Shown here: positions 2,650 through 43,324 of the stretch, in pieces
Numbering within the stretch: position 1 is the first letter of the stretch
How the letters are laid out: each line of letters starts with the position of its first letter
Assembly: GCA_036501845.1 (NCBI GenBank)
Contig: DASXZO010000036.1
Coordinates: 90,318 to 154,317 of the forward strand
DNA from: Acidimicrobiia bacterium
GTDB lineage: Bacteria > Actinomycetota > Acidimicrobiia > IMCC26256 > PALSA-610
Reading direction: 5' to 3'
Length of the DNA stretch: 64,000 bases
Position numbers and translations under genes: made by a program
The notes under the pieces: model-generated
Databases searched by the model: none
Seen by the model: only the letters and a program-made list of their open reading frames with translations
What the model was told of the DNA's origin: nothing

Positions 2650-2672
2650 GGCTTCTCCTCATGCTGGTCTGG

Positions 2673-4115: not shown

Positions 4116-4218
4116 GGCATTCCTCCCGTGGACGTGCCGATAGCTGCGCCAAACGGCGGGCCAAAGGCTGTGAACGTGCGGTGCGTTTGGTGGCGAGGCG
4201 GCGCGCACGCGCCCCGCG

Positions 4219-10546: not shown

Positions 10547-10569
10547 AGGATCATTCTCGCGTGCCGCGA

Positions 10570-11869: not shown

Positions 11870-11894
11870 CGTAGCGAAGAGCGCGCGGTCGCTT

Positions 11895-13037
11895 TCAGTC
11901 GTCGCCAGGGTTGTCCGCGCCGAGTGCCGGTGGCCGGCGACGCACGGTCGCAGGCGTGCGCGCGAGGCGCAGCGGCGAGCGGATCGACGGGAACACGCCC
12001 GCGTCGTCATGCAGCTCCACCACCGGCTCGACGCCGAGCGCGGTGGCGAGTTCCACCGCCTCGGCGACGCTGTTGATCCCGCCGGCAGGCACTCCGGCTC
12101 GCGTCAGCTCGGGTACCCAGTGCGCGCGAGGTCGGGCCACGAACGCGGCGCGCAGCACCGGGTCGAGCTCGTCACGGTGCGCCACCCGCGCGCCGTTGGT
12201 GGCGAAGCGATCATCGGCCGCGAGGTCAGGTCGTTCGAGCACGCTGGCGATCGCCGCGAATTGGCGGTCGTTGCCGCACGCCACGATGAAGTCGCCGTCG
12301 GCAGCCGGGTACACGCCATAGGGAACGATCGACGGATGATCGTTGCCGAGGCGCGTCGGGTTCTGGCCGGCGAGGAGATAGCCGCTCATCTGGTTCACGA
12401 GCGCGGCGAGCGCGCAGTCGAGCAGCGACACCTCGAGGTGCTGCCCGCGACCGCTGCGCTCACGCTCCTGCAACGCGGCGAGCACACCAATGGTGACGTA
12501 CAGCGAGCAGAGCACGTCGACCGCGGCGACACCGACCTTGGTGGGTGGGCCGTCGGCGTCGCCGGTGATACTCATCAAGCCGCTCGCGCCTTGCACGAGC
12601 AGGTCGTAGCCGGGCAGCTCCCGCGCCGCCGGCGTGGAGCCGAAGCCAGTGATCGTGCACACCACGAGACGCGGGTGGCGCGCCACGAGGTCGGCGGGAT
12701 CCATCCCCCAACGCGCCATCGTTCCAGGCTTGAAGTTCTCGACGAGCACGTCGGCGCCGTCGAGCATCGCAAGGATCGGCGCGCGGCCTTCGGGCGTCGT
12801 GAGGTCGGCAGTGATGGATCGCTTGTTGCGGTTCGTCGCCTGGAAGTAGGTGCTGGTGCCGTCCACGAACGGCGGTCCCCAGGTGCGCGTGTCGTCACCG
12901 ACGTGAGGACGCTCGATCTTGACGACGTCGGCTCCAAGATCGCCGAGGATCATCGTGGCGTGCGGGCCGGCGAGCACTCGTGACAGATCGACCACGGTGA
13001 TGCCATCCAGCGCACCAGGAGTGGGCGCCTCGGCCAT
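11895..13037 (-). CDS. family III CoA-transferase (CaiB/BaiF)
   Basis: Track ORF of 380 aa. LDGITVVDLSRVLAGPHATMILGDLGADVVKIERP...GDDTR.WGPP is the classic N-terminal signature. Confidence 0.9.
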   Translation of the reverse strand: MAEAPTPGALDGITVVDLSRVLAGPHATMILGDLGADVVKIERPHVGDDTRTWGPPFVDGTSTYFQATNRNKRSITADLTTPEGRAPILAMLDGADVLVENFKPGTMARWGMDPADLVARHPRLVVCTITGFGSTPAARELPGYDLLVQGASGLMSITGDADGPPTKVGVAAVDVLCSLYVTIGVLAALQERERSGRGQHLEVSLLDCALAALVNQMSGYLLAGQNPTRLGNDHPSIVPYGVYPAADGDFIVACGNDRQFAAIASVLERPDLAADDRFATNGARVAHRDELDPVLRAAFVARPRAHWVPELTRAGVPAGGINSVAEAVELATALGVEPVVELHDDAGVFPSIRSPLRLARTPATVRRRPPALGADNPGDD

Positions 13038-15028: not shown

Positions 15029-17671
15029 TCACGCGCTCGCCTCGTGCGGCTCCGGGTGCACGGGCTCGGGCGGCTCGACGGGTTCGGGAACGGTCACCGG
15101 CGCGCCGATGGGCACGACCACCACCATCGTGGCCCCGCCACCTGGCGTGTCCTCGATACGCAGCTCACCGCCCATCGCCTCGATGAAGCCCTTGGCGACG
15201 GCGAGTCCGAGCCCCACGCCGAGGCCCGATGGCTGATCGCCGAGGCGCTGGAACGGGAGCACCACGCGCTCGCGCTCGCTCACCGGGATGCCGGGGCCAC
15301 GGTCGACGATCCGCAGATGCATGCGATCGCTGAGGGCCGCGACCTCGATGCGCACGGGCACACCCGGGGGCGTCCACCGCAGCGCGTTGCCGATCAGATT
15401 GGCGAGCACCCGCTCCAACAGCGCGGCGTCGATCGTCATCAACGGCAGACCTTCGGCGACGTCGACCGCCACCGCGTCCTGTGCCGGCCGCAGCGACGCC
15501 AGCGCCGAGCCCACGATCTCTTCCACGTCGACGATCTGGGGCCGCGTCGCGACCTCGCCCGAGCGCAGACGGCTCATGTCGAGCAGATTGCCGACGAGAT
15601 CGTTGAGCCGCGCGGCCTCGTCGTCGATCGTGCGCAGCAACTCCTCACGCGCGTCCTCGGGCCATTCCACGTCGGTGGCGAGCAGGCTCGTGGCCGCAGC
15701 GCGGATCGACGCGAGCGGGGTGCGCAGGTCGTGGCTCACCGCCGCGAGCAGCGCGTTGCGGAGCTCGTTGGCGCGGGCCTGCGCGATCGCCTGTTCGGCT
15801 TCGCGCTGCAACAGCCGGCGGTGGCGCGCGAGCGCGATCTGCGTGGTGAACGACGCGAGCACCTCGCGTTCCTCAGCCGTGAGGCCGCGGCCCGACCAGG
15901 CAAGGCATGCATCGCCCGGCACGTTGACGGCGAGCTCGGGATCGAACGAGGCGTCATCCAGCGCGTTGCCAGCCCCGTCGGCCGCGTCGCCGGCGATCGT
16001 GCTCGGCTCGCCGCCCGGAGCGCGGGCTTCCACGTGCCACGCGCCGTCGTCGCCGCGAGCGAGCACCCGCACGTTGTCGAACGCGAATGTCGAGCCGATC
16101 TGCTCGAGCAGGCGCGGCAGCGGATCGGGATCGTCCACGGTGATGCCGGCCATCGTCGCCAGCATGCGCGCCTCGGCACGCGCCTGGTAAGCCTCGGCGC
16201 GACGCCCGGCCGCAAGGTCGACGAGCACGCTCACCACGCCACCGATCACCAGGAAGGCAACGAGCGCGAGCACGTCACGACCGTTCGAGATCGTGAACGT
16301 GTGGATTGGTGGCGCGAAGTAGTAGTTGAGCAAGAGGAAGCCGAACACCGACGCAACGAGCGCCGGCAGCACACCGCCGATCGTCGCGATCAATACGACC
16401 GCGAGCAGGTAGCACAGGATCGCGTTCTGGAAACCGAGCGAGTGCCGCGCCGGGATGAGGCAGAGCGTGAGGAGGGGCAGGCCGACGACCGCCAGCACGA
16501 ACCCGGCGATGCGCCGTTTCCGGCCCACCGACACGAAGCGAGGCAGGCGGGTGAACGTGCGCACCTGCGCACCACCTTCGTCGGCGAGACTCGGGCTCGA
16601 GATCACGTGCACGTCGAGCCGCCCCCGCGCGTTACGGAGCAGCTTGCGCACCACCGAGCCGCGCCACATTTCAGTGACACGCGATTCGCGGCTCGCACCG
16701 AGCACCACCTGCGTGGCGTTCTCCGCAGTGGCGACATGCAGCAATGCATCGGCCACGTCGGTGCCCGTCACCTCCACGTAGCGGCCGCCCACCTCTTCGA
16801 GCAACGACACCCGCTGCGCGATTGTTTCCGCGTCACCGGCGTGGCCGGCCCGAAGGCCGTCGCTGCGCACCACGTGCACGCCGATGAGCTCGCCGTGGGC
16901 GCGGCGCGCCATGCGCGCAGCCCGGCGGATCAGGTCGTCGCCGCCCGGCGCGCCCGTAAGCGCAACCACCACGCGCTCCTTCGTCTCCCACGCGGTGTCG
17001 ATGTCGTGGCGCTCGCGGTAGTCGAGCAACGACGCGTCGACCTTGTCGGCGAGCCACAGGAGCGCGAGCTCGCGCAACGCGGTGAGGTTGCCGACGCGGA
17101 AGTAGTTGCCGAGCGCGGCGTCCACCTTGTCGGAGGCGTAGATGTTGCCGTGTGCCATGCGCCGACGCAGCGCCTCCGGCGTCTGGTCGATGAGCTCCAC
17201 CTGGTCGGCGCTCCGCACCACGCCGTCAGGCACCGTCTCCTGCTGATCGATGCCAGTGATCTGCTCGACCACGTCGTGGAGCGACTCGAGATGCTGGATG
17301 TTCACGGTGGAGATCACGTCGATGCCCGCGTCGAGCACCTCCACCACATCCTGCCAACGCTTCTCGTTGCGCGAGCCGGGCACGTTGGTGTGGGCGAGCT
17401 CGTCGATGAGCGCCACTGCGGGCTTGCGGGCGATCAGCGCGTCGACGTCCATCTCGTCGAACGACGTGCCGCGATACTCGAACCGTCGCCGCGGGACCAC
17501 GTCGAGCTCGCCGACCTGCGCGGCGGTGTTCGGCCGCGCGTGCGTCTCGACGTAGCCGACGACCACGTCGGTGCCGCGCGCGGCGCGCCGGCGACCTTCG
17601 TTGAGCATCGCGAACGTCTTGCCGACGCCGGGCGAGGCACCGAGATAGACGCGCAAGTGCCCTCGGGCCAC
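15029..17671 (-). CDS. kdpD: sensor histidine kinase KdpD
   Basis: Track ORF of 880 aa. It contains the N-terminal KdpD domain with P-loop GASPGVGKT, a Usp-like region, a DUF4118 TM block, a GAF-like region, the HisKA H-box (SHDLRTPL) and an HATPase domain. Confidence 0.95.
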   Translation of the reverse strand: MARGHLRVYLGASPGVGKTFAMLNEGRRRAARGTDVVVGYVETHARPNTAAQVGELDVVPRRRFEYRGTSFDEMDVDALIARKPAVALIDELAHTNVPGSRNEKRWQDVVEVLDAGIDVISTVNIQHLESLHDVVEQITGIDQQETVPDGVVRSADQVELIDQTPEALRRRMAHGNIYASDKVDAALGNYFRVGNLTALRELALLWLADKVDASLLDYRERHDIDTAWETKERVVVALTGAPGGDDLIRRAARMARRAHGELIGVHVVRSDGLRAGHAGDAETIAQRVSLLEEVGGRYVEVTGTDVADALLHVATAENATQVVLGASRESRVTEMWRGSVVRKLLRNARGRLDVHVISSPSLADEGGAQVRTFTRLPRFVSVGRKRRIAGFVLAVVGLPLLTLCLIPARHSLGFQNAILCYLLAVVLIATIGGVLPALVASVFGFLLLNYYFAPPIHTFTISNGRDVLALVAFLVIGGVVSVLVDLAAGRRAEAYQARAEARMLATMAGITVDDPDPLPRLLEQIGSTFAFDNVRVLARGDDGAWHVEARAPGGEPSTIAGDAADGAGNALDDASFDPELAVNVPGDACLAWSGRGLTAEEREVLASFTTQIALARHRRLLQREAEQAIAQARANELRNALLAAVSHDLRTPLASIRAAATSLLATDVEWPEDAREELLRTIDDEAARLNDLVGNLLDMSRLRSGEVATRPQIVDVEEIVGSALASLRPAQDAVAVDVAEGLPLMTIDAALLERVLANLIGNALRWTPPGVPVRIEVAALSDRMHLRIVDRGPGIPVSERERVVLPFQRLGDQPSGLGVGLGLAVAKGFIEAMGGELRIEDTPGGGATMVVVVPIGAPVTVPEPVEPPEPVHPEPHEASA

Positions 17672-17675
17672 GCTG

Positions 17676-18272
17676 CTATCCGAGCTTGTCGAGCGCGAGG
17701 TTCACATCGAGCACGTTGACAACCGGTTCGCCGATGAACCCGAGCGCACGATCAGACGTGTGCTGGTGGACGATTCCCATCACCTGCGCAAGCGTAAGGC
17801 CACGCGCCTTGGCCACCCGCGCTGCTTGGAGCCGGGCGTTTGCGGGCGAGATGTCGGGGTCGAGACCCGAGCCCGACGAGGTCACGGCGTCGACCGGCAC
17901 GGCGTAGTTCGCCGGCAGTCCGTTGAAGGCGCGGTACGCCTTGGCGTCGGCCTCCACCGCGGCCAGGAGCTTGGGGTTCGACGGCCCGAGGTTCGACGCG
18001 GCACTGCCGTTGGCGTTGTACGGCGAATCGAGCGAGTCGGATGGGCGCGGCTGGAAGTAGCGGGGTTCGGGGTTGCCCTTGGCGTCGACGAACTGCTGGC
18101 CGATGAGCGACGAGCCAACGACCGTGCCCGCCTTGTCCTTCACGAGCGAGCCGTTCGCCTCGTGGTTGAACAGCAGTTCGGACGCGCCCGTGACTGCGAG
18201 CGGATAGACGAGACCGAGCAAGACCGTGAGCGCGATCGTCATCAGCAGCCCGGTGACGAGCTGGCGTTGCAT
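17676..18272 (-). CDS. kdpC: K+-transporting ATPase subunit C
   Basis: Track ORF of 198 aa. It has an N-terminal TM segment and the SGSGLDP.ISP motif. It abuts the kdpB stop. Confidence 0.9.
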   Translation of the reverse strand: MQRQLVTGLLMTIALTVLLGLVYPLAVTGASELLFNHEANGSLVKDKAGTVVGSSLIGQQFVDAKGNPEPRYFQPRPSDSLDSPYNANGSAASNLGPSNPKLLAAVEADAKAYRAFNGLPANYAVPVDAVTSSGSGLDPDISPANARLQAARVAKARGLTLAQVMGIVHQHTSDRALGFIGEPVVNVLDVNLALDKLG

Positions 18273-20393
18273 CTACTTCACCCCCATCGCGCTGATGATG
18301 AGGTCGATCAGCTTGATGCCGACGAACGGGGCGACGATCCCGCCGGCGCCGTAGATCAGCAGGTTGCGCCGCAGGATCGCGGCCGCGCCCATCGCTCGGT
18401 ACTTCACGCCACGGAGCGCGAGTGGGATCAGCATCACGATGATCAGCGCGTTGAAGATGACCGCCGACAGGATCGCCGAGTGCGGGTTGTTGAGCCGCAT
18501 GATGTTGAGCGTCTTCAACTGCGGAAACACGCCCTGGAACATCGCCGGGATGATGGCGAAGTACTTGGCGATGTCGTTCGAGATCGAGAACGTGGTGAGC
18601 GACCCCCGTGTGATCAGCAACTGCTTGCCGATTTCGACGATCTCGATGAGTTTCGTGGGATTCGAGTCGAGGTCGACCATGTTGCCGGCCTCTTTGGCGG
18701 CCTGCGTGCCGGTGTTCATGGCCACGCCCACATCGGCTTGCGCGAGCGCGGGCGCGTCGTTCGTGCCGTCGCCGGTCATGGCCACGAGGAAGCCGCCCTG
18801 TTGCTCCTTCTTGATCAGGGCCATCTTGTCTTCGGGGGTGGCCTCCGCAAGGAAGTCGTCGACGCCGGCCTCGTCGGCGATTGCGCGCGCGGTGAGCGGG
18901 TTGTCGCCGGTGATCATGATCGTGCGGATGCCCATGCGGCGCATCTCGTCGAAGCGCTCGCGCATGCCCTGCTTCACCGTGTCCTTGAGGTGAATCACAC
19001 CGAGCACACGCGTACTGCCGTCGCGACCCTCGGCAACCGTCAGCGGCGTGCCGCCGTTCGTGGCAATGCCCTCCACGATCGGCGCGAGGTCGGGCGGCAC
19101 GTGGCCGCTCTGCTCCTCCACCCAGCGCTGTACTGAATCGGCCGCCCCCTTGCGAATCTCGCGATGTCCCACACCTGGGTCGTCGAAGTCGATGCCCGAC
19201 ATCCGGGTCTGCGCGGTGAACGCCACGAGCTCGGCGCCTTCGATCTCCTGGGACTGCAGGCCGTAACGCTCCTCGGCGAGCGTCACGATCGAACGGCCCT
19301 CGGGGGTTTCGTCGGCGAGGCTCGACAGCAACACGGTCTCGGCGAGCTCCTGCTCGCTCACGCCACCCACGGGGATGAACTCCGCAGCCATGCGGTTGCC
19401 GTAGGTGATCGTGCCGGTCTTGTCGAGCAGCAGCGTGCTGCAGTCGCCTGCAGCCTCGACCGCGCGACCGCTCATGGCGAGCACGTTGCGCTGCACGAGC
19501 CGGTCCATTCCGGCAATGCCGATCGCCGACAGGAGCGCACCGATCGTGGTGGGGATCAGGCACACGAGCAACGCGACCAGCACCGTGATCGATTGCTGCG
19601 CGTGCGAATAGATCGCGAAGGGCTGCAGCGTCACCACCGCGAGCAGGAAGATGATCGTGAGCCCCGCGAGCAAGATGTTGAGCGCGATCTCGTTCGGTGT
19701 CTTCTGCCGGCTCGCGCCCTCGACCAACGCGATCATGCGATCGAGGAAGGTCTCGCCCGGCTTCGAGCTCACCTGCACCACGATCTGGTCCGACAGCACC
19801 CGCGTGCCACCGGTGACCGAGCAGCGGTCACCGCCCGACTCGCGAATCACCGGCGCCGATTCACCGGTGATGGCCGACTCGTCGACCGACGCGATCCCTT
19901 CCACGATGTCGCCGTCGCCCGGGATGAGCTGGCCCGCGTCGACCACGCAGAGATCGCCCACCTGGAGCTGGGTCGACGGCGTCGCCTTCACCGACCCGTC
20001 GCTCTGACGTACGTAGGCAACGGTCTCCGAACGCGTCTTGCGCAGCGTGTCGGCCTGGGCCTTGCCGCGACCTTCGGCGACCGCCTCGGCAAAGTTGGCG
20101 AACAGCACGGTGAACCACAGCCATACCGCGACGAGTGCGGCAAAGCCGTCGGTGTCGCGAATCGCGAGAAACGTGGTGAGCACACTGCCGATCTCGACGA
20201 CGAACATCACCGGATTGCGCGCCATCTGACGCGGATCGAGCTTGATCAACGCGTCGATCACGGCGCGCCGCACGATCTTCGGCTCGAACATCGACGCCGA
20301 CTTGCGCTTCGAATGCGAGCCGATTGCCGCCTGGTCGGCAGCCGGCGCTTCGGGGACCTCTTCGAGTGTGGTCTCGGTTGCCATCTCGCTCAC
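18273..20393 (-). CDS. kdpB: K+-transporting P-type ATPase subunit B
   Basis: Track ORF of 706 aa. The phosphorylation site DKTGTIT, MITGDN and [12 protein letters not shown] motifs are present. Confidence 0.95.
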
Positions 20394-20399
20394 CGACTC

Positions 20400-22112
20400 C
20401 TAGAACTTTCCGACGAGGTGCTCGACGATCGGCCCCAGCGCGACCACCGGGAAGAACGTGAGCCCCACCACAACGATCACCACGCCCACGAGGAGGGCGC
20501 TGAACAGGGCGGTGCCAGTGGGGAACGTGCCCGCCGAAGCCGGCACCGGTTGCTTGCGGCCCAGTGAGCCGGCGATCGCGAGCACGGGGATCATCAACAG
20601 GTAGCGACCCACGAGCATGCAGATGCCGAGCGTGGTGTTGAACCATTGCGTGTTGCCGTTGAGGCCACCGAACGCGGACCCGTTGTTGTTCGACGCGCTC
20701 GTGAACGCGTACGTCATCTCGGTGAGGCCGTGCGGTCCGGTATTGCCGAGTGACGACGTGGCGGTTTTGAGCACGATCGAGATGCCGGCGAACACGAGGA
20801 TCGCGAGCGGCACCACGAGGATGTAGAGCACGACAAGCTTCATCTCGGCGGCTTGGATCTTCTTGCCGAGATACTCCGGTGTGCGGCCGACCATCAGGCC
20901 CGCGATGAACACGCTCAGCAGCGCGAAGATCAGCATGCCGTAGAGCCCCGACCCGGTGCCGCCGGGGTCGACCTCGCCGAACATCATGTTCACGAGCGCG
21001 GTACCGCCGCCGAGTGGGGTGAGGCTGTCGTGCGCGCAGTTGACCGCGCCGGTCGAAGTGCCTGTCGTGCTGGCGACGAACACACCGCAGCCCTGCGAAC
21101 CGAGCCGGGTCTCCTTGCCCTCCATGTTGCCGCCGCCCGAGTTCGCGCTCGTGGTCGACTGGGTGACCTGCGCGCTCGCGATCTTCGGGCTGCCGCGGCT
21201 CTCGAACGTCATCACCAGCGCCGCCGACGCGATCCAGAGCAGGAACATCGCTGCCAGCACCACCCAGCCCTGGCGCATGTCGCCCACGAGCTTGCCGAAC
21301 ATGAACGGGAACGAGAACGGGATGGCGAGCAGCAGCCAGATCTCGAGCACGTTGGTGAGGCCGTTCGGGTTCTCGTAGGGATGTGCCGAGTTGGCGTTGA
21401 GCGGGCCGCCGCCGTTCTCGCCGATCTCCTTGATGGCTTCCTGACTCGCGATCGGTCCCTGGGTGATTGTTTGGGTCTGGCCCGTGACCGTGTTGACCTT
21501 CTGCGGCGAGTGGAAGTTCTGGATCGCGCCCTGGCTGACGAGCACCAGCGCGAACACGAATGCCAGCGGCAGCAGCACTCGCGTGCACGTGCACACCAAG
21601 TCGACCCAGAAGTTGCCGATCGTGTTCGAACGCGTGCGGACGAGTCCGCGAATGAGCGCCACCGCGACCGCGGCGCCGGCCGCCGCCGACACGAAGTTGT
21701 GGAACGCGAGCCCGGCCATTTGCGTGAGATGGCTCACCGTGAGCTCGGGCACGTAGTTCTGCCAGTTCGTGTTCGTGAGGAAGCTCACCGCGGTGTTGAA
21801 CGACAGTCCGGCGGGCACCGCGCTCTGGTTCGCCGGGTTCAACGGCAGAAGGTTCTGCACACGCAACTGCGCGTAGAGGATCAGCACCGACACCGCGCTG
21901 AACGCAAGCAGCGAGAGCGCGTACACGTTCCAGCGCTGCTCCCGCTCCGCATCGACACCAGTGACGCGATAGATCGCGCGGTCGATGGGGCCGAACACCC
22001 GGTCGCCGGGCGCAGGACCGTTGGCGTACACCTTGGCGAGATACGTGCCGAGCAGCGGCGTCGACACTGCAAGCAGCGCGACGATCAGCAGCAGCTGGAG
22101 CCAACCACTCAT
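20400..22112 (-). CDS. kdpA: K+-transporting ATPase subunit A
   Basis: Track ORF 20400..22247. The KdpA N-terminus MSGWLQLLLIVALLAVSTPLLGTYLAKVY begins at ATG 22112, which overlaps the kdpF stop (ATGA). Confidence 0.9.
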   Translation of the reverse strand: MSGWLQLLLIVALLAVSTPLLGTYLAKVYANGPAPGDRVFGPIDRAIYRVTGVDAEREQRWNVYALSLLAFSAVSVLILYAQLRVQNLLPLNPANQSAVPAGLSFNTAVSFLTNTNWQNYVPELTVSHLTQMAGLAFHNFVSAAAGAAVAVALIRGLVRTRSNTIGNFWVDLVCTCTRVLLPLAFVFALVLVSQGAIQNFHSPQKVNTVTGQTQTITQGPIASQEAIKEIGENGGGPLNANSAHPYENPNGLTNVLEIWLLLAIPFSFPFMFGKLVGDMRQGWVVLAAMFLLWIASAALVMTFESRGSPKIASAQVTQSTTSANSGGGNMEGKETRLGSQGCGVFVASTTGTSTGAVNCAHDSLTPLGGGTALVNMMFGEVDPGGTGSGLYGMLIFALLSVFIAGLMVGRTPEYLGKKIQAAEMKLVVLYILVVPLAILVFAGISIVLKTATSSLGNTGPHGLTEMTYAFTSASNNNGSAFGGLNGNTQWFNTTLGICMLVGRYLLMIPVLAIAGSLGRKQPVPASAGTFPTGTALFSALLVGVVIVVVGLTFFPVVALGPIVEHLVGKF

Positions 22113-22201
22113 CAGAGCTTCTCTGGCGCGATCAGCGCGAACACGAGGTACGCGGCCACGAGGATCGACAGGATCAGTCCGAGCGCGTTGTCGTAACTCA
22201 T
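22112..22201 (-). CDS. kdpF: K+-transporting ATPase subunit F (29 aa)
   Basis: MSYDNALGLILSILVAAYLVFALIAPEKL is a single TM helix with the typical KdpF ending (..L..PEK.). It is embedded in a spurious longer track ORF (22112..22411). Confidence 0.8.
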   Translation of the reverse strand: MSYDNALGLILSILVAAYLVFALIAPEKL

Positions 22202-22395
22202 GACCCCGCCCCGACCACGACGGGGTCGCTGCCGTTGCCGTGGCCATCCGACTCCGCGGGCACCGCGTCGGGCTCGCGCCCGCTCACCACCGTGGCGGTT
22301 TCGTCGGGTCCGATGATCTTGTCGCACGCATGCACAAACAAGGTGGCGAGCGCGAAGAACGCCACGATGATCGCTACGTACACGATGTCGGCCAC
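22198..22395 (-). CDS. 65-aa single-TM protein translationally coupled to kdpF
   Basis: Track ORF reading (GTG)ADIVYVAIIVAFFALATLFVHACDKIIGPDETATVVSGREPDAVPAESDGHGNGSDPVVVGAGS. Third codon positions are GC-rich. GAAAGGGG lies upstream of the GTG. Its stop overlaps the kdpF ATG (ATGA). Confidence 0.55.
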   Translation of the reverse strand: MADIVYVAIIVAFFALATLFVHACDKIIGPDETATVVSGREPDAVPAESDGHGNGSDPVVVGAGS

Positions 22396-34286: not shown

Positions 34287-35666
34287 ATGAGCGACTCCGA
34301 CGCGCTCATGTGGAACATCGAAAAGGACCCGGTGCTGCGCTCCACCATCGTGGCGGTGGCGATCCTCGAGGCCCCGCCCGACTTCGAACGCCTGCGTCGG
34401 CGCTACGAGCAAGCGAGCCACACGATTCCCCGGTTGCGCCAGCGGGTGCTCACGCCGCCCATGCGAATCGGTCCCCCACGCTGGGCCGACGACCCGCATT
34501 TCGATCTCGATTTCCATCTCCGCCGGATCGTGGTGCCGCCTCCCGGCAACCAACGCCGGCTCCTCGACTTCGTCGGCCCGATCGCGCAGACGAGCTTCGA
34601 CCGCGCCCGTCCGCTGTGGGAGACCACCGTGGTCGAGGGTCTCGACGATGGACGGGCCGCGGTGGTGATGAAGGTGCACCACTCCGTCACCGATGGCGTC
34701 GGCGGTGTCGAACTGCTCGCGCAACTCGTCGACCTCGACCCAGGTGGCGGCAACACGATCTCCGTGCACGAGCGCGACCACGGTCAGGCGCCCACCGAGG
34801 CGCTCGAGGGCGGTGCGCTCGTGCGCGACTCGATCGCGCACACCACGCGCCGCTTCATGGGCATCGCCCGCCGGGTGCCCACCATCGCGCTCGACACGGT
34901 CACCAGCGCAGCGCGCGATCCGTTCGGGAGCGCGGTGCGCGCAGTCGACACGGCGCGTTCGGTGGGCCGCGCGGTCGCCCCGGCAAGTTCGCCGATGTCG
35001 CCACTGATGACCCGTCGTGGCCTCGGCCGTCGTCTCGACGCGTTCGACGTGTCGCTCGACGATCTACGCCGCGCCGCCAAGCGCGCTGAGTGCAGCCTCA
35101 ACGATGCTTTCGTTGCCGCGGTGATCGGTGGCCTCGCGCAGTACCACGGAGCTCGGGGTACCGAGGTCGACGAGCTGCGCATGACGATCCCGATCAACAT
35201 CCGTCACGAAGGCAGCAGCGCGGCGGGCAATCACTTCGCCCCGGCGCGGTTCGCGGTGCCGACCGCCATCGTCGACCCGGTGGAGCGCATGCACGCCGTC
35301 GGCGCGCTGGTTCGTGCCTGGCGGCAAGAGCCGGCGCTGGCGCTCACCGACACGCTCGCCGGCGTGCTGAACCGTCTGCCCACCTCTACCACCACCGCGC
35401 TCTTCGGCGGAATGCTGAAATGCGTCGACTTCGTGACGTCGAACGTGCCGGGCGCGCCGATGCCCGTGTACCTCGGCGGCGCCGAGGTGGAGCGGCTCTA
35501 CGCGTTCGGCCCGCCCTCAGGTGCCGCGGTGAACGTCACACTGCTCTCGCACGTAGATACATGTTGCATCGGTGTGGTGAGCGACACCACCGCAGTTCCC
35601 GATGGTTCCGCGCTGCTCGGCGAGCTGCAACGCGGCTTCGACGAGGTGCTCGCCGCACAGGCATGA
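34287..35666 (+). CDS. wax ester synthase / diacylglycerol acyltransferase (WS/DGAT)
   Basis: MSDSDALMWNIEKDP... with the catalytic HHSVTDGVG (HHxxxDG) motif. Track ORF 34245..35666. Confidence 0.85.
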   Translation: MSDSDALMWNIEKDPVLRSTIVAVAILEAPPDFERLRRRYEQASHTIPRLRQRVLTPPMRIGPPRWADDPHFDLDFHLRRIVVPPPGNQRRLLDFVGPIAQTSFDRARPLWETTVVEGLDDGRAAVVMKVHHSVTDGVGGVELLAQLVDLDPGGGNTISVHERDHGQAPTEALEGGALVRDSIAHTTRRFMGIARRVPTIALDTVTSAARDPFGSAVRAVDTARSVGRAVAPASSPMSPLMTRRGLGRRLDAFDVSLDDLRRAAKRAECSLNDAFVAAVIGGLAQYHGARGTEVDELRMTIPINIRHEGSSAAGNHFAPARFAVPTAIVDPVERMHAVGALVRAWRQEPALALTDTLAGVLNRLPTSTTTALFGGMLKCVDFVTSNVPGAPMPVYLGGAEVERLYAFGPPSGAAVNVTLLSHVDTCCIGVVSDTTAVPDGSALLGELQRGFDEVLAAQA

Positions 35667-36424
35667 CCGAGCAGAAGGCCCCGAAGGCAAAGACTGCGCC
35701 GCTCGAACCCGAAGGATCCGTACCGAGCAAGCCCGTAGGGCGTCGCGTGTTCATCGGTCTCGCGGGAGCCGGCGTCGCGGGAATCGCCATCGGCAGTCAT
35801 CTTCAAAACGCGGTGAACACGGTCACCGACAAGCTCTCGTCGATCGACCCGAGCGGCATCGTCGGTGGCATCGTGCCCCACGACCAGTGGACGATCTACA
35901 CGATCACCGACGGGTATCCGAAGGAAACCGAAGCGCAATACACGCTGCGGGTGAGTGGCCTCGTCGATCGGCCGATGACGCTGCGCTACGAAGACTTGGT
36001 GCGCAAGACGCCGACGCACATCACGAGCGACTTCCAATGCGTCACCGGATGGCGCGTGCACGGCGTGCATTGGACCGGCGTGCGCCTCAGTGACCTGCTC
36101 GACGAGGCAGGTGTGCACAAGTCGGCGCGCGCACTGCGCTTCACGAGCTTCGACGGCGTGTACACCGAGAGCCTCACCCTCGGCCAGGCCCGGCGGCCCG
36201 ACGTGATCGTGGCATACCAGATGGATCAGAAGCCGGTCTCGAGGGAACACGGTGGGCCGGTTCGCCTGTATGTGGCGCCGATGTACGGCTACAAGTCGAT
36301 CAAATGGCTGAACGGCATTCAAGTGGTCGACCGCGTGGAGCCCGGCTACTGGGAAGGCTTCGGCTACGACGTCGACGGGTGGGTGGGAAAGAGCAATGGT
36401 CGCAACGACGACCCCACGAGCTGA
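35663..36424 (+). CDS. Tat-exported molybdopterin-dependent oxidoreductase (sulfite oxidase / YedY-MsrP-like fold)
   Basis: Twin-arginine motif GRRVFIGLAGAG, then FQCVTGWRVHGVHWTGVRLSDLL and GGPVRLYVP.MYGYKSIKW. Its ATG overlaps the WS/DGAT stop (ATGA). Confidence 0.8.
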   Translation: MTEQKAPKAKTAPLEPEGSVPSKPVGRRVFIGLAGAGVAGIAIGSHLQNAVNTVTDKLSSIDPSGIVGGIVPHDQWTIYTITDGYPKETEAQYTLRVSGLVDRPMTLRYEDLVRKTPTHITSDFQCVTGWRVHGVHWTGVRLSDLLDEAGVHKSARALRFTSFDGVYTESLTLGQARRPDVIVAYQMDQKPVSREHGGPVRLYVAPMYGYKSIKWLNGIQVVDRVEPGYWEGFGYDVDGWVGKSNGRNDDPTS

Positions 36425-37058
36425 CGCGCCTGGGCCTGGGCCCGCGCCCGAGCAGCTGCTCTCGCGCTTCGACCGCGTGGAGCGCGCCGTGCACTGGACG
36501 AACGGCGCGCTGTTCCTGTTCCTCCTCGCGACGGGCTACACGCTCGCCGGTGCGCCGGGGACCGGCTGGATCGGCAACAAGCGCAGCGTCGAAGAGCTGC
36601 ACACCTACGTGGGCTACGCGCTGCCCTTCCCCGTACTGCTCGGCATCGCCACGCACATCGGCCGCCAATTGCGTGAAGATCTCCACCGCATCTCGCGCTG
36701 GACGGCCGACGACGCGCGCTGGTGGCGAAAGTCGACTCGCCGCTCGGCGCGCGTCGGCAAGTTCAACCCGGGCCAGAAGCTCAACGCCGTGTTCGTCGGC
36801 GCGTGTCTCTTCGTGATGCCGGCGACGGGCACCTTCCTGCGCTGGCCGGCCTACTTCTCGCACTCGTTCGTCGCCGGCGCCGACTTCACCCACCGTTGGT
36901 TCGCGTTGGCGATCTTGATCGTGACGATCGGCCACATCGCGATGGCGCTCTCGCGCCCGTCGTCGATGCGCGGGATGTTCACCGGGAAAGTGCCCGACAA
37001 TTGGGCTCGCCACGAGCACCCGCGCTGGCACGCGGAGATGACGTCGAAATCCGATTAG
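36396..37058 (+). CDS. b-type cytochrome membrane subunit (FdnI / Ni_hydr_CYTB-like)
   Basis: Track ORF of 220 aa. RFDRVERAVHWTNG, KFNPGQKLN and four TM segments with conserved His are present. It overlaps the Moco gene by 29 nt. Confidence 0.75.
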   Translation: MVATTTPRADAPGPGPAPEQLLSRFDRVERAVHWTNGALFLFLLATGYTLAGAPGTGWIGNKRSVEELHTYVGYALPFPVLLGIATHIGRQLREDLHRISRWTADDARWWRKSTRRSARVGKFNPGQKLNAVFVGACLFVMPATGTFLRWPAYFSHSFVAGADFTHRWFALAILIVTIGHIAMALSRPSSMRGMFTGKVPDNWARHEHPRWHAEMTSKSD

Positions 37059-37067
37059 GTTCGCACC

Positions 37068-39338
37068 GTGCCGGCGGGCGTGGAAGATCGGGTCGACGGG
37101 CTGCTCGCGCAACTGTCGCTGCGCGAGAAGCTCGCCCAGCTCGGCGGCGCGTGGATCACCGACCTCGTTGACGCCGACGCGTTCTCCGCCCAGCGAGCGG
37201 CGCGCGTGCTCGCCAACGGCATCGGCACCGTCACCCGCATCGGCGCCACCACGGGGTTGCGGCCGACCGCTCGTGCCGAGTTGGCGAATGCCATTCAGCG
37301 TCACCTCGTGGAGCACACCAATGCGGGCATCCCCGCAGTGATCCACGAGGAGAGCACCGCCGGCTTCTGCGCGCGCGACGCCACGCAGTTCCCGCAAGCG
37401 ATCGGGCTCGCCGCCACGTGGGATCCCGAGTTGATCAACGCGATGGCGCGCGTGATCCGCGAGCAGATGACCGCGGTCGGCGCTCGCCACACCCTCGCGC
37501 CGGTGCTCGACATCGCTCGCGATCCCCGGTGGGGCCGTACCGAGGAGACCTACGGCGAGTCGCGCCACCTCACCAGCCGCATGGGCGTCGCGTATGTGCG
37601 GGGGATGCAGACCGACGACCTGCGCGGCGGCGTGGCATGCACCGGCAAGCACTTCCTCGGCTACGGATTGTCGGAAGGCGGCATGAACCATGCGCCCGTG
37701 CACCTCGGCGGGCGCGAGCTACGCGAAGTGTTCGCAGAGCCATTCCGCGCCACGATCGCCGAGGCGAACCTCGCCACAGTGATGAACTCGTACGCCTCGG
37801 TCGACGGGCTTCCATGCGGCGGGTCCTACGCGATCCTCACCGCGCTGTTGCGTGACGAGCTCGGTTTCGATGGCGTGGTGGTGGCCGACTACTTCACCAT
37901 CGGCCTGCTGCTCGGTCACCACCGCATCGCACCCAATCTCGGGCGCGCGGGAGAGGTCGCGCTCCGTGCCGGCCTCGACATGGAGCTGCCGAACACGGTC
38001 GCGTACGGCGACCCCCTGCACACGCTCATCGAACGCGGCGACGTGGAAGTGGCGCTGGTCGACCGGTCGGTGCGCCGCGTGCTCGCACTCAAGTTGAAGC
38101 TCGGTCTCTTCGAACAGCCCTACGTGGACGACGCGATCGCGGCCCGCGTGTACGACACGCCCGAACAGCGCGCGCTGGCGCGCGAGCTCGCTGCCGCGTC
38201 GGTGGTGGTGTGCACGAACGACGGCGTGCTCCCGATCGACGCGAGCAGCAACGAGCCGATCGCGGTGATCGGCCCGTGCGCCGACGACGTGCGCCTCTTG
38301 CAAGGCGACTACTCGTACCCGGCCCATGCCGAGATCGGCTTCCTCACCGACCAAGCCGAGGACCGTGGCATCCTGCCGAGCACTGTCGCCGAAGGAACCA
38401 TGGCCGCAGGCCCGTACTACCCACCGTCGGTCACGCCGCTCGCCGCGCTGCGCGAGCTGTTCGCCGATGTGCGGTACGAGCGCGGCTGCGCCCTCGACGG
38501 CCACGACACGAGCGGCGTGGCCGCGGCCGTCGAGGCGGCACGCGCCTCACGCGTCGCGGTGGTGTGCGTAGGCGGCCGCAGCGGCTTGACCCACGACTCG
38601 ACCACCGGCGAGTTCCGCGACGCGACATCGTTGGGATTGACCGGCCCGCAGCAAGGGCTTGTCGACGCGGTGCTCGCCACCGGCACACCAACCGTCGTCG
38701 TGCTCGTGAGCGGCCGCGTGCACGCGCTGGCGCAGGTGGCCGAACGCGCGAGCGCCTTGGTGGTGGCGTGGTGCCCGGGCGAGGAGGGCGGTCACGGGCT
38801 CGCCGACGTGCTCTGCGGTCACCGCGACGCCAGCGGGCGGCTGCCGATCACCGTGCCGCGCTCGGCCGGCCAGGTGCCCATCCATCACGATCACCGCGCG
38901 GGAGGCGGGCGCAGCATGATGCTCGGTGACTACACCGACGCGCCGAGCGCGCCGCTGTTCCCGTTCGGACACGGCCTGTCGTACACATCGTTCGAGTACG
39001 ACCGGCTGAAACTCGGCGGCCGAAGGCTCGACGACGGCATCCAGGTGCGCTGCCGCGTCAAGAACACCGGCCGCCGGGCCGGCATCGAGACCGTGCAGAT
39101 CTATCTGCGCGACGACATTGCGAGCCTCGCTCGCCCCGACCGCGAGCTGTGCGCATTCACGAAGGTGGCGCTCGAACCCGGCGCCTCACAGGTAGTGGAG
39201 CTCGCGATTGCACCGCGGCAGCTCGCGTTCTACGACGAGGCGATGCACTTCGCCGCCGAACCCGGCTCGTTCACGGTGATGGTGGGATCGTCGGCCACCG
39301 ACGTGCGGCTCGAAGGAACGATCAAGCTCGTGGCGTAG
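37068..39338 (+). CDS. glycoside hydrolase family 3 (beta-glucosidase/xylosidase-like)
   Basis: Track ORF of 756 aa. SLREKLAQL, GKHFLGYG, GFDGVVVADY (nucleophile region) and a C-terminal Fn3-like domain are present. Confidence 0.9.
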   Translation: MPAGVEDRVDGLLAQLSLREKLAQLGGAWITDLVDADAFSAQRAARVLANGIGTVTRIGATTGLRPTARAELANAIQRHLVEHTNAGIPAVIHEESTAGFCARDATQFPQAIGLAATWDPELINAMARVIREQMTAVGARHTLAPVLDIARDPRWGRTEETYGESRHLTSRMGVAYVRGMQTDDLRGGVACTGKHFLGYGLSEGGMNHAPVHLGGRELREVFAEPFRATIAEANLATVMNSYASVDGLPCGGSYAILTALLRDELGFDGVVVADYFTIGLLLGHHRIAPNLGRAGEVALRAGLDMELPNTVAYGDPLHTLIERGDVEVALVDRSVRRVLALKLKLGLFEQPYVDDAIAARVYDTPEQRALARELAAASVVVCTNDGVLPIDASSNEPIAVIGPCADDVRLLQGDYSYPAHAEIGFLTDQAEDRGILPSTVAEGTMAAGPYYPPSVTPLAALRELFADVRYERGCALDGHDTSGVAAAVEAARASRVAVVCVGGRSGLTHDSTTGEFRDATSLGLTGPQQGLVDAVLATGTPTVVVLVSGRVHALAQVAERASALVVAWCPGEEGGHGLADVLCGHRDASGRLPITVPRSAGQVPIHHDHRAGGGRSMMLGDYTDAPSAPLFPFGHGLSYTSFEYDRLKLGGRRLDDGIQVRCRVKNTGRRAGIETVQIYLRDDIASLARPDRELCAFTKVALEPGASQVVELAIAPRQLAFYDEAMHFAAEPGSFTVMVGSSATDVRLEGTIKLVA

Positions 39339-39409: not shown

Positions 39410-40540
39410 GTGGCCGAGATCGTGATCCCCGACACGCTGCGCCCGCACGACGGACGCTTCGGCTCCGGCCCGTCGAAGGTGCGGCCCGAAGCCGTGCTCG
39501 CGCTGGCCGACACGTCGGCGGCCTTCCTCGGCACGAGCCATCGCCGTCCCACGGTGCGCGCGGTGGTGGGGCGCGTGCGCGACGGCATGCGCGAGCTCTT
39601 CTCGCTGCCCGACGGCTACGAGGTGCTGCTCGGCAACGGTGGCACCACTGCGTTCTGGGACGCGGCGAGCTTCGGACTCATCGAACGGCGCAGCCAGCAC
39701 GTGACGATCGGCGAGTTCTCGTCGAAGTTTGCCGCCGTCACCAAGAAAGCTCCACACCTCGACGACCCCGAGATCATCGACACCGCGCCCGGCCTGGTGC
39801 CGGCACCGTGTCGCGCCGCGGACGGCATCGACGCCTACTGCTTCCCGCACAACGAGACATCCACCGGAGCGACGTGCGAGGTGCGGCGGCCCGCAGGCAC
39901 CACTGGAGACGACGCGCTGGTACTGGTCGACGCCACGTCGGCAGCGGGTGGCCTGCGCGTCGACCCCAAAGAGTTCGACGTGTACTACTTCGCGCCGCAG
40001 AAATGCTTCGGCGGCGACGGCGGCCTCTGGCTCGCGCTCTGCTCGCCCGCGGCGGTCACGCGCATCGAGAAGATCACGGCGGGCGACCGCTGGCGCCCGG
40101 CATCGCTCGACCTCGGCATCGCACTCGAGCAGTCGCGGCTCGACCAGACCTACAACACACCCGCGCTCGCCACGCTCTTCCTGATCGCGCACACCGTCGA
40201 ATGGATGCTGGCCATCGGCGGCCTGGAAGGCTGCGCGCAGCGCTGTGACGAGTCGGCCGGCATCGTGTACGGCTGGGCGGAGGCGAACCCGCACGCCACG
40301 CCGTTCGTGGCCGACGCGGCTCGCAGCAACGTGACTGCCACCATCGACTTCGACGAGTCGATCGACGCCGAGCGCGTCGTGGCCGCATTGCGGGCCAACG
40401 GCATCCTCGACGTCGACCCCTACCGCAAGCTCGGCCGCAACCAGCTGCGGATCGCGCTCTTCCCCGCCATCGACCCCGACGACGTCGCCCGCCTCACGAG
40501 CTGCATCGACTACGTGATCGAGCACCTCGACGCGTCGTAG
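39410..40540 (+). CDS. serC: phosphoserine aminotransferase (actinobacterial type)
   Basis: Track ORF of 376 aa. DGRFGSGPSKVR... and ..HNETSTG..; APQKCFG carries the PLP lysine. Confidence 0.85.
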   Translation: MAEIVIPDTLRPHDGRFGSGPSKVRPEAVLALADTSAAFLGTSHRRPTVRAVVGRVRDGMRELFSLPDGYEVLLGNGGTTAFWDAASFGLIERRSQHVTIGEFSSKFAAVTKKAPHLDDPEIIDTAPGLVPAPCRAADGIDAYCFPHNETSTGATCEVRRPAGTTGDDALVLVDATSAAGGLRVDPKEFDVYYFAPQKCFGGDGGLWLALCSPAAVTRIEKITAGDRWRPASLDLGIALEQSRLDQTYNTPALATLFLIAHTVEWMLAIGGLEGCAQRCDESAGIVYGWAEANPHATPFVADAARSNVTATIDFDESIDAERVVAALRANGILDVDPYRKLGRNQLRIALFPAIDPDDVARLTSCIDYVIEHLDAS

Positions 40541-40550
40541 TGTTCGCCGC

Positions 40551-42017
40551 GTGCCGGGCACGCCTGACGTTCTGGCCGATCTGCCCGACGGTCTGATCGC
40601 AGTCGTCAAACGCGACTGCCCCACGTGCACGATGGTTGCGCCGGTGCTGCGTGGGCTCGCCGATGCCGGCGCGCTCGTGGCCGTGTTCAGCCAGGACGAC
40701 CCGGAGTTTCCCGAGGAACTCGGTGCCATCTCTGCGCGCGACGACCGTGAGCTCGACGTGTCGTTCGCGCTCGACATCGACACCGTGCCCACGTTGCTGT
40801 TGTGGTCGGCGGGCATCGAGGTGGCGCGCACCGTCGGCTGGTCGCGTTCGCAATGGGAAGCGGTCGCGGGTGTCGACGGGCTCGGTGCCGATCTCCCCGA
40901 CCTTCGGCCGGGCTGTGGCTCCCGCACGCACGACCCCGAGATCGCCGACCAGCGCGCGGTCGCACAGATGCTTCCGAAGCTGCAAAGCCGCAGGCTCGAT
41001 CTCGGCGCCGGCGAAGACGAGATGGAAGCCCTGTTCGAGCGCGGCTTCACCGACGGGCTGCCGGTGGTGCCGCCCACGCCGGAGCGCGTCGCGCGCATGC
41101 TCGGTGGCACGACGCGCGATCCGCACGAGATCGTTGCGACGGTGCCGCCCGATCTCGTGGAATGCACGGTGGAGAAGGTGGCGGTGAACGCGGTGATGGC
41201 CGGCTGCCGTCCCGAGTATTTGCCGGTAGTGCTCACCGCGGTGGAAGCCGCGTGCACCGACGAGTTCAACGCGCACGGGCTGCTCTGCACCACATGGTTC
41301 TCGGGCCCGCTCGTGCTCGTGAACGGTCCTCTTGCGCGCGCGATTGGCATGAACAGCGGCGTCAACGCGCTCGGGCAGGGCAATCGGGCCAACGCGACGA
41401 TTGGCCGCGCGCTCCAACTCGTGATCCGCAACGTGGGCGGCGGCCGCCCCGGCGAGATCGACCGGGCCGCGCTCGGCAACCCGGGCAAGTACACGTTCTG
41501 CTTCGCCGAGCGTGAGCACGATTCGCCGTGGGAACCGCTGCATGTGGAACGGGCCGGACTGGCGCGCGACGCCAGCGCCATCACGCTGTTCGCGGCGTCG
41601 GGCGTGCAGGGACTTGCCGATCAGCTCAGCCGCACACCCGAGTCGTTGAGCCGCACTTTCGCGGCATGCCTGCGGACGGTCGGCCATCCGAAGGCCGTGA
41701 TCGCGTGGGACGCCATGCTCGTGGTGGGGCCCGAGCACGCGCGCGTGTACCGCGAGGCGGGCTGGTCGAAGGCGCGCGTGCGCGACGAGATCATGGCGCA
41801 GCTCCAGATCCCAGGATCGGAGCTGGTGCGCGGCGCGGGCGGGATCGCCGAGGGCCTGCCCGCGGCGTTCGAGTCGTCGGTGATGCCGAAGTTCCGCGAC
41901 GGCGGACTCGTCATCGTTCACGCCGGCGGCGAGGCCGGTATGTTCTCCGCGGTCATCGGCGGCTGGGCCAGCGGCGCGATCGGCAGTGAGATCGTCACGA
42001 AGGAAGTGGTGGCATGA
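40551..42017 (+). CDS. thioredoxin-fold (CPTC) domain fused to a ~370-aa uncharacterised domain
   Basis: Track ORF of 488 aa. The N-terminal Trx-like fold has VVKRDCPTCTMVAPVL and cis-Pro TVPTLLLW. The remainder (GFTDGLPVVPPT...VNAVMAGCRPEYLPVV...GNRANATIGRALQLV...GNPGKYTFCFAE) matches no family I can name. Confidence 0.7.
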   Translation: MPGTPDVLADLPDGLIAVVKRDCPTCTMVAPVLRGLADAGALVAVFSQDDPEFPEELGAISARDDRELDVSFALDIDTVPTLLLWSAGIEVARTVGWSRSQWEAVAGVDGLGADLPDLRPGCGSRTHDPEIADQRAVAQMLPKLQSRRLDLGAGEDEMEALFERGFTDGLPVVPPTPERVARMLGGTTRDPHEIVATVPPDLVECTVEKVAVNAVMAGCRPEYLPVVLTAVEAACTDEFNAHGLLCTTWFSGPLVLVNGPLARAIGMNSGVNALGQGNRANATIGRALQLVIRNVGGGRPGEIDRAALGNPGKYTFCFAEREHDSPWEPLHVERAGLARDASAITLFAASGVQGLADQLSRTPESLSRTFAACLRTVGHPKAVIAWDAMLVVGPEHARVYREAGWSKARVRDEIMAQLQIPGSELVRGAGGIAEGLPAAFESSVMPKFRDGGLVIVHAGGEAGMFSAVIGGWASGAIGSEIVTKEVVA

Positions 42018-42538
42018 CCGGGCACGAGCTCCTCGATCCCACCGGCGAGCTGGTATCGGCGACCACACGGCCGCGAGCATTGCGACCCGAGTCTCTGCGC
42101 GGCGCGCGCGTGGGGCTGCTCGACATCCGCAAGCCGCGCGGCGACGTGTTCCTCGACCGGCTCGAGACGTTGCTCACGGATCACGGTTGCGACGTCGAAC
42201 GCTTCGCCAAACCGACATTCACCAAGCCGGCCCCGATCGATCTGCGCCACGAGATCGCCGCCAAATGCGACGTGGTGATCGAGGCACTGGCCGACTGAGG
42301 CTCGTGCACGTCGTGCAGTGTGCACGACACCGTGAACCTCGAATCCGTCGGCGTGCCCGCGGTGTTCGTGGCGTCGAGCGAGTTCGTGAGTGCGGCGGCC
42401 GCGCAGGCCGAAGCACTCGGCGCCGACCCGGCGCGCGTATTCGTGGCGCACCCGATCCAGGATCGCACCGACGCCGAGCTGCAAACGCTCGCCGACCGCG
42501 CGTTCGGCCAGCTCGTCGAGGCGCTCACAAGCAACTGA
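42014..42538 (+). CDS. UGSC-motif selenoprotein (GrdB/PrdB-like UxxCxxC site); TGA 42296-42298 read as selenocysteine
   Basis: Track ORFs 42014..42298 and 42320..42538 share a frame. Read-through gives ...AAKCDVVIEALAD-U-GSCTSCSVHDTVNLESVGVPAVFVASSEF... (174 aa). A SECIS-like hairpin lies 11 nt downstream of the TGA. The ATG overlaps the upstream gene's stop (ATGA). Confidence 0.7.
42310..42328 (+). promoter_or_regulatory. SECIS-like stem-loop
   Basis: GUCGUGCA-GUG-UGCACGAC forms a perfect 8-bp stem beginning at +15 relative to the U of UGA. Loop G and U fall at +23/+24. A lower stem CAC(42307-09)/GUG(42332-34) is possible, leaving a 3-nt internal loop. Confidence 0.6.
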
Positions 42539-43308: not shown

Positions 43309-43324
43309 CCAGTAACCCCAGGGG

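Follow-up and report, generated by a model that had tools for sequence, protein, structure and literature searches.

In bacteria, a selenocysteine insertion sequence (SECIS) element recruits SelB carrying selenocysteine (Sec)-tRNA(Sec) to the ribosome. UGSC has stood in the literature as a predicted selenoprotein family since 2007-2008 (PMC1976440, PMC2398784). In 2007 Hyphomonas neptunium (reference accession ABI76733.1) and a worm symbiont were reported to carry a 'UGSC-containing protein' whose function was unknown (Zhang & Gladyshev, PMC1976440). A thioredoxin-like fold was guessed for it in 2008 (PMC2398784), and it was still uncharacterised in reviews of 2022 and 2026 (PMC9312934, PMC13188914). 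GrdB and PrdB, which share the UxxC arrangement, are listed in Table 2 of PMC2398784. Here we describe a member of the UGSC family at positions 42014-42538 of a 64,000-nucleotide (nt) stretch of DNA from an Acidimicrobiia bacterium (assembly GCA_036501845.1, contig DASXZO010000036.1); the whole stretch is referred to as the window. In all likelihood 42014-42538 is one gene, encoding a 174-residue UGSC selenoprotein whose UGA is decoded as Sec by means of a SECIS element and which is paired with a redox partner.

An interrupted gene of the UGSC family

The gene starts with ATG at 42014 and its codon 95 is TGA. A reading made from the DNA letters alone (the sequence-only reading) had joined open reading frames (ORFs) 42014-42298 and 42320-42538 across this codon, noting that they share a frame and are separated only by the TGA and seven sense codons (42299-42319), with Sec as residue 95 of 174. 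All of these coordinates and counts were exact on rechecking; the GTG at 42320 is the point where a mechanical ORF list restarts. Read-through gives a product of 174 amino acids containing ...KCDVVIEALAD-U-GSCTSCSVHD... The features of the gene are as follows.

42014-42538, + strand: predicted UGSC-family selenoprotein gene, full read-through (174 amino acids, Sec95), from the translation, PF24696, NF041046 and coding-type divergence before and after the TGA
42296-42298, + strand: predicted Sec codon UGA; TGA in the window and in 160 homologous loci, Cys (TGT/TGC) in the same column of full-length homologues
42296-42316, + strand: putative U-G-S-C-T-S-C redox motif (Sec95, Cys98, Cys101), from the sequence and the predicted structure of a Cys form
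42536-42538, + strand: true stop TGA of the selenoprotein gene, from the sequence; 20 of 33 likely window genes end in TGA

For profile searches of the read-through product Sec was written as Cys. The Pfam model PF24696, 'UGSC family', matches with 157.9 bits (E = 3.6e-46; cut-off 25), aligning residues 5-172 to model positions 1-171 of 172 in a single stretch, and the NCBIfam model NF041046, 'UGSC family (seleno)protein', scores 155 bits against a curated cut-off of 125. The sequence-only reading had pointed to a family model named for a UGSC motif and lacking an assigned function, and these two models are both matched above their curated cut-offs. The U/C-G-S-C motif is kept in all homologues, and the window protein has D-U-GSCTSC at the Sec/Cys column of the family. 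These matches place the window gene in an already catalogued family, curated in Pfam and NCBIfam and described since 2007-2008.

Gene callers were expected to report two fragments here, and the public gene call for the same DNA in JGI metagenome 3300036780, on a contig of 70 kb, does so, splitting the gene into products of 94 and 72 amino acids that both match PF24696. A protein search returned 1,683 relatives, the best 120 of which were inspected for length and for the residue at the Sec column. About 100 of these 120 are stubs of 94-100 amino acids, all ending in ...EALAD; the full-length sequences, a minority, have Cys, or rarely W, R or G, at the Sec column.

Relatives are present in at least 520 genomes. 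DNA was compared at 80 loci from species genomes, mostly Acidimicrobiia metagenome-assembled genomes (MAGs) together with Myxococcota and others, and at 80 further metagenome loci, which were anchored on a divergent family member and lie on contigs with a guanine-plus-cytosine (GC) content of 0.39-0.72. All 160 Sec-form loci fetched have TGA at the aligned position (161 of 161 with the window), and the frame runs on past it. The Cys forms L084-L087 carry TGT or TGC at this column, and full-length Cys homologues are uninterrupted. In the window and the 80 close loci (81 sequences) pairwise divergence at codon positions 1/2/3 is 0.20/0.16/0.47 before the TGA and 0.32/0.28/0.55 after it, with no in-frame stop in the 60 codons following the TGA, a pattern indicating that the frame after the TGA is under purifying selection in these sequences. 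The codon tabulation called for by the sequence-only reading thus came out in its favour: orthologues that end at this codon, with the 72 residues downstream unconserved, would have spoken against it, and the downstream frame is instead open and shows coding-type divergence.

A few homologues differ at the Sec column. L088, on a 930-nt metagenome contig (603-650), has TGG (Trp) at the Sec position and an intact hairpin. The TGG reflects an error in sequencing or else a point change, inactivating or neutral in effect. We considered that the 'W' forms might be TGA translated under another genetic code, and rejected this as the codon in L088 is TGG. The database also holds 'R' and 'G' forms (P0003, P0008). 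Five other in-frame TGA candidates in the window were set aside; they have neither a redox motif nor family support and are adjacent same-frame genes or off-frame ORFs.

A conserved hairpin and Sec-decoding machinery in relatives

A hairpin, GUCGUGCA-GUG-UGCACGAC, lies at 42310-42328, beginning 11 nt after the UGA and placing a loop G and U at +23 and +24. The sequence-only reading had described it as a bacterial SECIS hairpin of 8 base pairs (bp) with precisely this geometry, and the description was accurate. The structural features are the following.

42310-42328, + strand: SECIS upper stem-loop (predicted), 8 bp with GUG loop, from folding, the bacterial SECIS (bSECIS) consensus and conservation
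42312-42326, + strand: conserved SECIS core (predicted), 6 bp, with loop G at 42318 and loop U at 42319
42296-42341, + strand: tentative extended lower stem including the UGA, from the minimum free energy (MFE) fold; 76% paired

The published bSECIS consensus (PMC13188914, Fig. 2A) comprises a loop of 3-9 nt on a stem of 4-16 bp, G in the first two loop positions (G then G/U), a distance of 16-37 nt from UGA to loop, and an MFE of -7.5 kcal/mol or lower. The hairpin agrees in all four respects, with a 3-nt loop on an 8-bp stem, a loop G-U, 19 nt between UGA and loop (positions 4-22), and -10.9 kcal/mol for the 19 nt folded alone (-20.5 to -20.7 kcal/mol with the lower stem). No Rfam family covers the hairpin, and no SECIS-type hairpin occurs 3' of the final stop TGA at 42536-42538.

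Third-position divergence among the 81 close sequences is 0.049 within the hairpin, compared with 0.47-0.55 in the flanking coding sequence, a roughly tenfold suppression of synonymous change. In none of the 161 sequences do the loop bases G23 and U24 change, whereas the third loop position accepts any base (G 112, U 35, A 7, C 7), and each of the six core pairs is paired in at least 99.4%; pair 18-30 is G-C in 123, G-U in 33 and A-U in 5, and is never unpaired. The serine codon supplying the loop G-U is AGU in 161 of 161, irrespective of GC content. The two outer pairs that extend the stem to 8 bp in the window belong to the TCG-serine lineage only and are 47-75% paired. Pairing in the upper helix reaches 98.5% over 77 distinct close sequences, compared with 23-49% in slid controls; for the putative lower stem the figure is 76%, which is partly dictated by conserved codons.

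The Cys forms serve as a natural control. The hairpin is wholly lost in the divergent Cys forms L085 (TGT) and L086 (TGC), which supports its link with the TGA. In L084 (1229-1276), the closest Cys form (TGT, encoding a protein 66% identical to that of the window), the hairpin region is identical to the window at all 21 nt; since every one of them is kept, this locus looks like a recent Sec-to-Cys switch with a 'fossil' SECIS. Judged by its consensus fit and conservation, the hairpin is very probably a bacterial SECIS element, and SelB binding is predicted. SelB with Sec-tRNA(Sec) would bind the hairpin and insert Sec at codon 95, using a stem-loop with a conserved 6-bp core (8 bp in this lineage) and an apical G-U-N loop.

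Three related Acidimicrobiia/Ilumatobacteraceae genomes carry tRNA-Sec (anticodon UCA) directly beside the UGSC gene and its upstream partner (described below; together, the module). In L023 (5429-8511), upstream of the module, selA (407 bits; cut-off 268) and selB (274 bits; cut-off 242) lie between tRNA-Sec and the preceding genes, and L075 (5408-8504) has the same arrangement upstream of the partner-UGSC pair. In L047 (10526-13524) tRNA-Sec, selA and selB are immediately downstream of the module. The Acidimicrobiia lineage therefore has the Sec trait, in places physically linked to the UGSC gene, and the arrangement suggests that UGSC is a principal client of the Sec machinery in these three genomes. 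The selA gene of L047 (10736-11939) seems to be split, one ORF covering model positions 51-194 and tblastn placing residues 174-429 at 11202-11939; a frameshift or a fault in the assembly may be responsible.

The partner gene and a possible two-component redox enzyme

Directly upstream of the UGSC gene is a gene for a 488-residue protein, with these features.

40551-42017, + strand: partner gene, 488 amino acids, N-terminal thioredoxin-like domain and uncharacterised C-domain of about 350 amino acids; its stop overlaps the UGSC start (ATGA)
40617-40628, + strand: CPTC motif (Cys23, Cys26) of the thioredoxin-like domain, invariant in 32 homologues and just before helix 24-38
41205-41207, + strand: Cys219 of the C-domain, in the motif NAvMAGCrPEY; the only C-domain Cys invariant in two-gene and fused architectures

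The UGSC gene is translationally coupled to this partner. Of the 80 genome loci, 79 have a partner homologue directly upstream of UGSC in the same orientation, and in the remaining one it lies no more than 5.5 kb away. Among metagenome loci whose contigs reach far enough upstream, 65 of 73 show this arrangement too, as does every Cys-form locus examined. Conservation with UGSC does not extend to other neighbours: serC, GH3, an MsrP-like pair and others each occur at no more than 8 of the 80 genome loci. The partner family is large, with at least 8,000 database matches. The window partner belongs to no Pfam or NCBIfam family, giving only faint thioredoxin-like matches, and an NCBI protein 100% identical to it is named 'thioredoxin family protein [Acidimicrobiia bacterium]'. 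No description of this near-obligate partner was found in those portions of the UGSC family literature available to us. The 'UGSC/Unknown_1' fusion of 2008 may represent the same association, and the fused proteins described next probably correspond to it.

A profile search of 1.84 billion representatives gave 2,572 UGSC relatives. Some of these, from other lineages and 485-574 amino acids long, join a Cys-form UGSC domain (CGSCT[AS]W) to the C-domain of the partner (P0320, P0321, P0365, P0373, P0377). Residues 193-462 of P0321 align with partner residues 151-421 at 40% identity (E = 3e-69) and its N-terminus matches UGSC (E = 2e-20); P0373 is 42% identical to the partner (E = 3e-58). Only the UGSC part of these fusions is recognised by Pfam and NCBIfam. 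In an alignment of nine sequences from both architectures the C-domain invariants are Cys219, DGLP..PPT and NRANATIGRA. In P0309, P0320, P0321, P0365, P0373 and P0377 the third Cys of U/CxxCxxC is Trp and the thioredoxin-like domain is absent. With Trp replacing the third Cys in fused forms, the one pair common to all is the first, C/U-x-x-C. We discarded apparent fusions of partner and UGSC in L063, L070 and L078, as the UGSC frame stays open for about 580 codons upstream through the off-frame, GC-rich partner gene (Arg/Pro/Gly-rich nonsense), and P0243 (651 amino acids), which looks like a frameshifted, garbled translation, was not used.

The UGSC domain was modelled with AlphaFold2 (AF2) on a natural Cys form 66% identical to the window protein. 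The model (predicted local distance difference test score, pLDDT, 92.3; predicted template modelling score 0.85) has five strand-helix units with parallel strands, residue 95 lying in the loop that joins strand 87-93 to helix 96-111, whose first turns carry Cys98 and Cys101. In a Foldseek comparison with the PDB the best matches are lumazine synthase, flavodoxin and DHH-type proteins (RecJ DHH), with template modelling (TM) scores of at most 0.51, and there are no thioredoxins among the matches. The domain is thus predicted to be flavodoxin-like alpha/beta rather than thioredoxin-like, and, the model being of this kind and thioredoxins being absent from the matches, the thioredoxin-like suggestion of 2008 is unsupported. 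In the model, the loop position of Sec95 ahead of the Cys98/Cys101 helix is a typical placement for a redox-active selenol/thiol pair. The AF2 model of the partner has a mean pLDDT of 76 and a confident N-terminal thioredoxin-like domain with the invariant CPTC, which superposes on thioredoxins with a TM score of about 0.6 and a root-mean-square deviation of about 2.7 A. A PDB sequence search gave nothing relevant to UGSC or the partner.

We tentatively propose, as a reading somewhat less likely than not, that UGSC, rather than standing alone as a thioredoxin-like protein, is the selenium-bearing subunit of an undescribed two-component redox enzyme. Such an enzyme would combine a flavodoxin-like Sec/Cys domain with a catalytic C-domain of about 350 amino acids (DGLPvVPPT, NAvMAGCrPEY, NRANATIGRA); in Acidimicrobiia and relatives it would use a CPTC domain for recycling, and elsewhere it would exist as one fused Cys-form polypeptide. 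UGSC and the partner would form one redox enzyme, with Sec95 and Cys98 acting as a redox-active selenol/thiol pair at a helix N-terminus and cycling through a selenenylsulfide. UGSC would dock on the partner C-domain, which would hold the substrate and/or provide Cys219 as the second catalytic thiol, and the CPTC thioredoxin-like domain of the partner would re-reduce the UGSC selenenylsulfide. Complex formation, the direction of electron flow and the role of a substrate are in this scheme inferred from the anatomy of the proteins.

The remainder of the window was also surveyed. At 35663-37058 (+) a molybdopterin-oxidoreductase domain gene with weak MsrP/SorA-type matches is followed by a cytochrome-b-type (Ni_hydr_CYTB) gene; this MsrPQ-like pair is upstream of a GH3 glycosidase gene (37068-39338) and serC (39410-40540; TIGR01366, 537 bits). 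A likely kdp potassium-transport operon occupies 15029-22247 (-), where kdpA is confirmed (20400-22247, 746 bits) and adjacent same-strand ORFs of 706, 198 and 880 amino acids fit kdpB, kdpC and kdpD by size alone. Housekeeping genes at 1657-4290 and 9011-11514 (-) comprise prs, glmU and tRNA-Gln (4218-4290), then metG and rsmI; given this block, the window is consistent with a chromosomal rather than a mobile origin. L081, an assembly of the same population from another sample (99.97% identical), has 62 nt (11298-11359) where the window has 10 nt (43311-43320). The difference is intergenic, downstream of a 233-residue ORF, and a third assembly, L082, agrees with the window.

Alternative readings and comparison with known systems

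The proposal that 42014-42538 is a UGA-decoded UGSC-motif gene holds up in its central points, the family being matched above cut-offs and the TGA and hairpin being kept in 160 homologous loci. A number of results weigh against it or against its pairing with the partner. The 64-kb window contains no tRNA-Sec (ARAGORN and Rfam find only tRNA-Gln) and no selA or selB detectable by tblastn with SelA and SelB, and selD was not found among the window ORFs tested, which are housekeeping genes (prs, glmU, metG, rsmI, kdpA, ychF). Because this stretch of a metagenome contig holds no Sec machinery, we only infer its presence, and actual Sec insertion, in the organism of the window. Folding of the region, recommended by the sequence-only reading, returned the hairpin, though its energy is unremarkable against shuffles (z = -1.4; 17 of 200 shuffles fold as well). 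The case rests on comparison because folding energy by itself means little in a window this rich in GC (0.65-0.71; 69% GC context). Covariation is thin: the stem hardly varies, so that double changes are seen at one pair only (18-30), and conserved Cys (UGC) and His (CAC/U) codons account for part of it. In the Cys form L087 a 7-bp variant with a CGC loop still folds. The C-domain of the partner has a moderately confident model (pLDDT 76 for the whole protein) and no convincing relative among solved structures. A literature search found no functional study of the UGSC family and no experimental evidence of Sec incorporation or function. Finally, 8 of the 73 metagenome loci have no upstream partner.

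These eight loci carry TGA-form UGSC genes (L093, L105, L122, L126, L128, L131, L132, L140) and may represent a second genomic context for the family. Two ABC-permease-like membrane ORFs are upstream of UGSC in L128, and an M16-peptidase-like ORF and a metallo-beta-lactamase-like ORF in L122, all judged by eye from their translations.

The sequence-only reading had aligned the Sec site with those of GrdB and PrdB, and it is conceivable, if unlikely, that the protein belongs to that family as a diverged member and that the module is a substrate-specific Stickland-type reductase with a pyruvoyl partner. The U-x-x-C arrangement is common to both, and weak local similarity to GrdB and GrdF extends over the strand-Sec-helix-strand segment; by analogy, Sec and a resolving Cys could in both cases form a selenenylsulfide that is re-reduced by a dithiol or thioredoxin. 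The window protein itself matches TIGR01917 with 14.7 bits against a cut-off of 602 and the GrdF model NF040794 with 12.8 bits against 800, both locally across the Sec site, and gives no match to PF07355 at E <= 1. Across the family, NCBIfam matches to GrdB/GrdF amount to 12-16 bits against cut-offs of 600-800 and occur in only 3-4 of 23 members, the best having E = 4.4e-4. UGSC has 174 residues against about 240-430 for GrdB/GrdF/PrdB (PF07355; TIGR01917, TIGR01918). The partner shows no similarity to pyruvoyl proproteins of the GrdE/PrdA type or to any Pfam family. There is no GrdA, thioredoxin reductase or other grd/prd gene nearby, the neighbours being serC, GH3 and unrelated genes, and most hosts are MAGs of Acidimicrobiia and Myxococcota rather than of amino-acid fermenters. 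The likeness in motif and the local similarity at the Sec site therefore stand, and the profile searches do not extend them to the family level: on these scores the window protein does not belong to GrdB/PrdB. UGSC is possibly a remote relative of their Sec-bearing region.

It is very unlikely that the UGA is read as a standard amino acid (Trp, Cys or Gly), through genome-wide reassignment or near-cognate suppression. The TGG of L088, the W, R and G in database translations and the failure to see Sec machinery for the organism of the window would fit such a reading. It is opposed by the use of TGA as the ordinary stop of 20 of 33 likely window genes, the UGSC gene and its partner included, by the conserved, consensus-fitting SECIS just downstream, by the tRNA-Sec, selA and selB adjoining the gene in three relatives, and by the alternation of TGA and Cys in the column, a signature of Sec/Cys pairs.

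A genuine stop at the TGA, or a nonsense mutation that inactivates the gene, leaving a 94-residue protein with or without a 72-residue protein from GTG 42320, or a pseudogene, is scarcely credible: this reading has on its side the two products annotated by gene callers, the window without Sec machinery and the 94-100-residue fragments that make up about 100 database entries, and against it that a nonsense mutation is not expected to be fixed at one codon in 161 of 161 sequences from several phyla, that the 60 downstream codons are open and diverge at 0.32/0.28/0.55, that a single domain model spans the two halves without a break and the two make up one compact predicted fold, and that Cys-form homologues are uninterrupted. 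Given the 160 of 160 TGA codons, the coding-type divergence, the open frame and the ordinary use of TGA as a stop in the window, a fixed nonsense mutation, a pseudogene and a reassigned TGA are all untenable.

With 42014-42538 read as a selenoprotein gene, it should be annotated as one gene and not as two fragments, an error that affects most public copies of the UGSC gene. What is added here beyond the known family is this correction, a well-defined SECIS, the evidence for a partner and for fusions, and a predicted fold unlike that assumed in the literature. The near-invariant SECIS, with its 6-bp core, G-U-N loop and AGU serine codon across GC contents of 0.39-0.72, offers a convenient marker of Sec decoding in Acidimicrobiia and Myxococcota MAGs. 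Partner coupling, Rosetta-stone fusions, the single invariant Cys of the C-domain and the non-thioredoxin predicted fold lead to a testable two-protein hypothesis. Should the two-component enzyme prove real, it would give a first clue to the function of a selenoprotein family that ranks among the most abundant in aquatic metagenomes.

The locus can be set beside three further described systems. The hairpin resembles the SECIS of Escherichia coli fdhF in lying inside the coding sequence just 3' of the UGA, with an 11-nt spacer and a loop G and U at +23 and +24. In fdhF a bulged U17 matters for the binding of SelB, whereas the helix in the window is perfect and has no bulged U. With thioredoxin-fold CxxU/UxxC selenoproteins (SelW-like, Trx-like, Prx-like) the UGSC protein shares a redox-type U-x-x-C at a strand-to-helix junction and a presumed role in thiol/selenol oxidoreduction. 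It differs from them in that the thioredoxin-like CxxC domain of the module sits on the partner protein, and the UGSC domain itself is modelled as five parallel strands alternating with helices. The closest system is the UGSC family (PF24696/NF041046), with which the window protein has in common a full-length match above both cut-offs, the U-G-S-C column, a length of about 175 amino acids, the alternation of TGA and Cys, and abundance in environmental metagenomes; we find no defining difference, and the window protein is placed within this family as a member.

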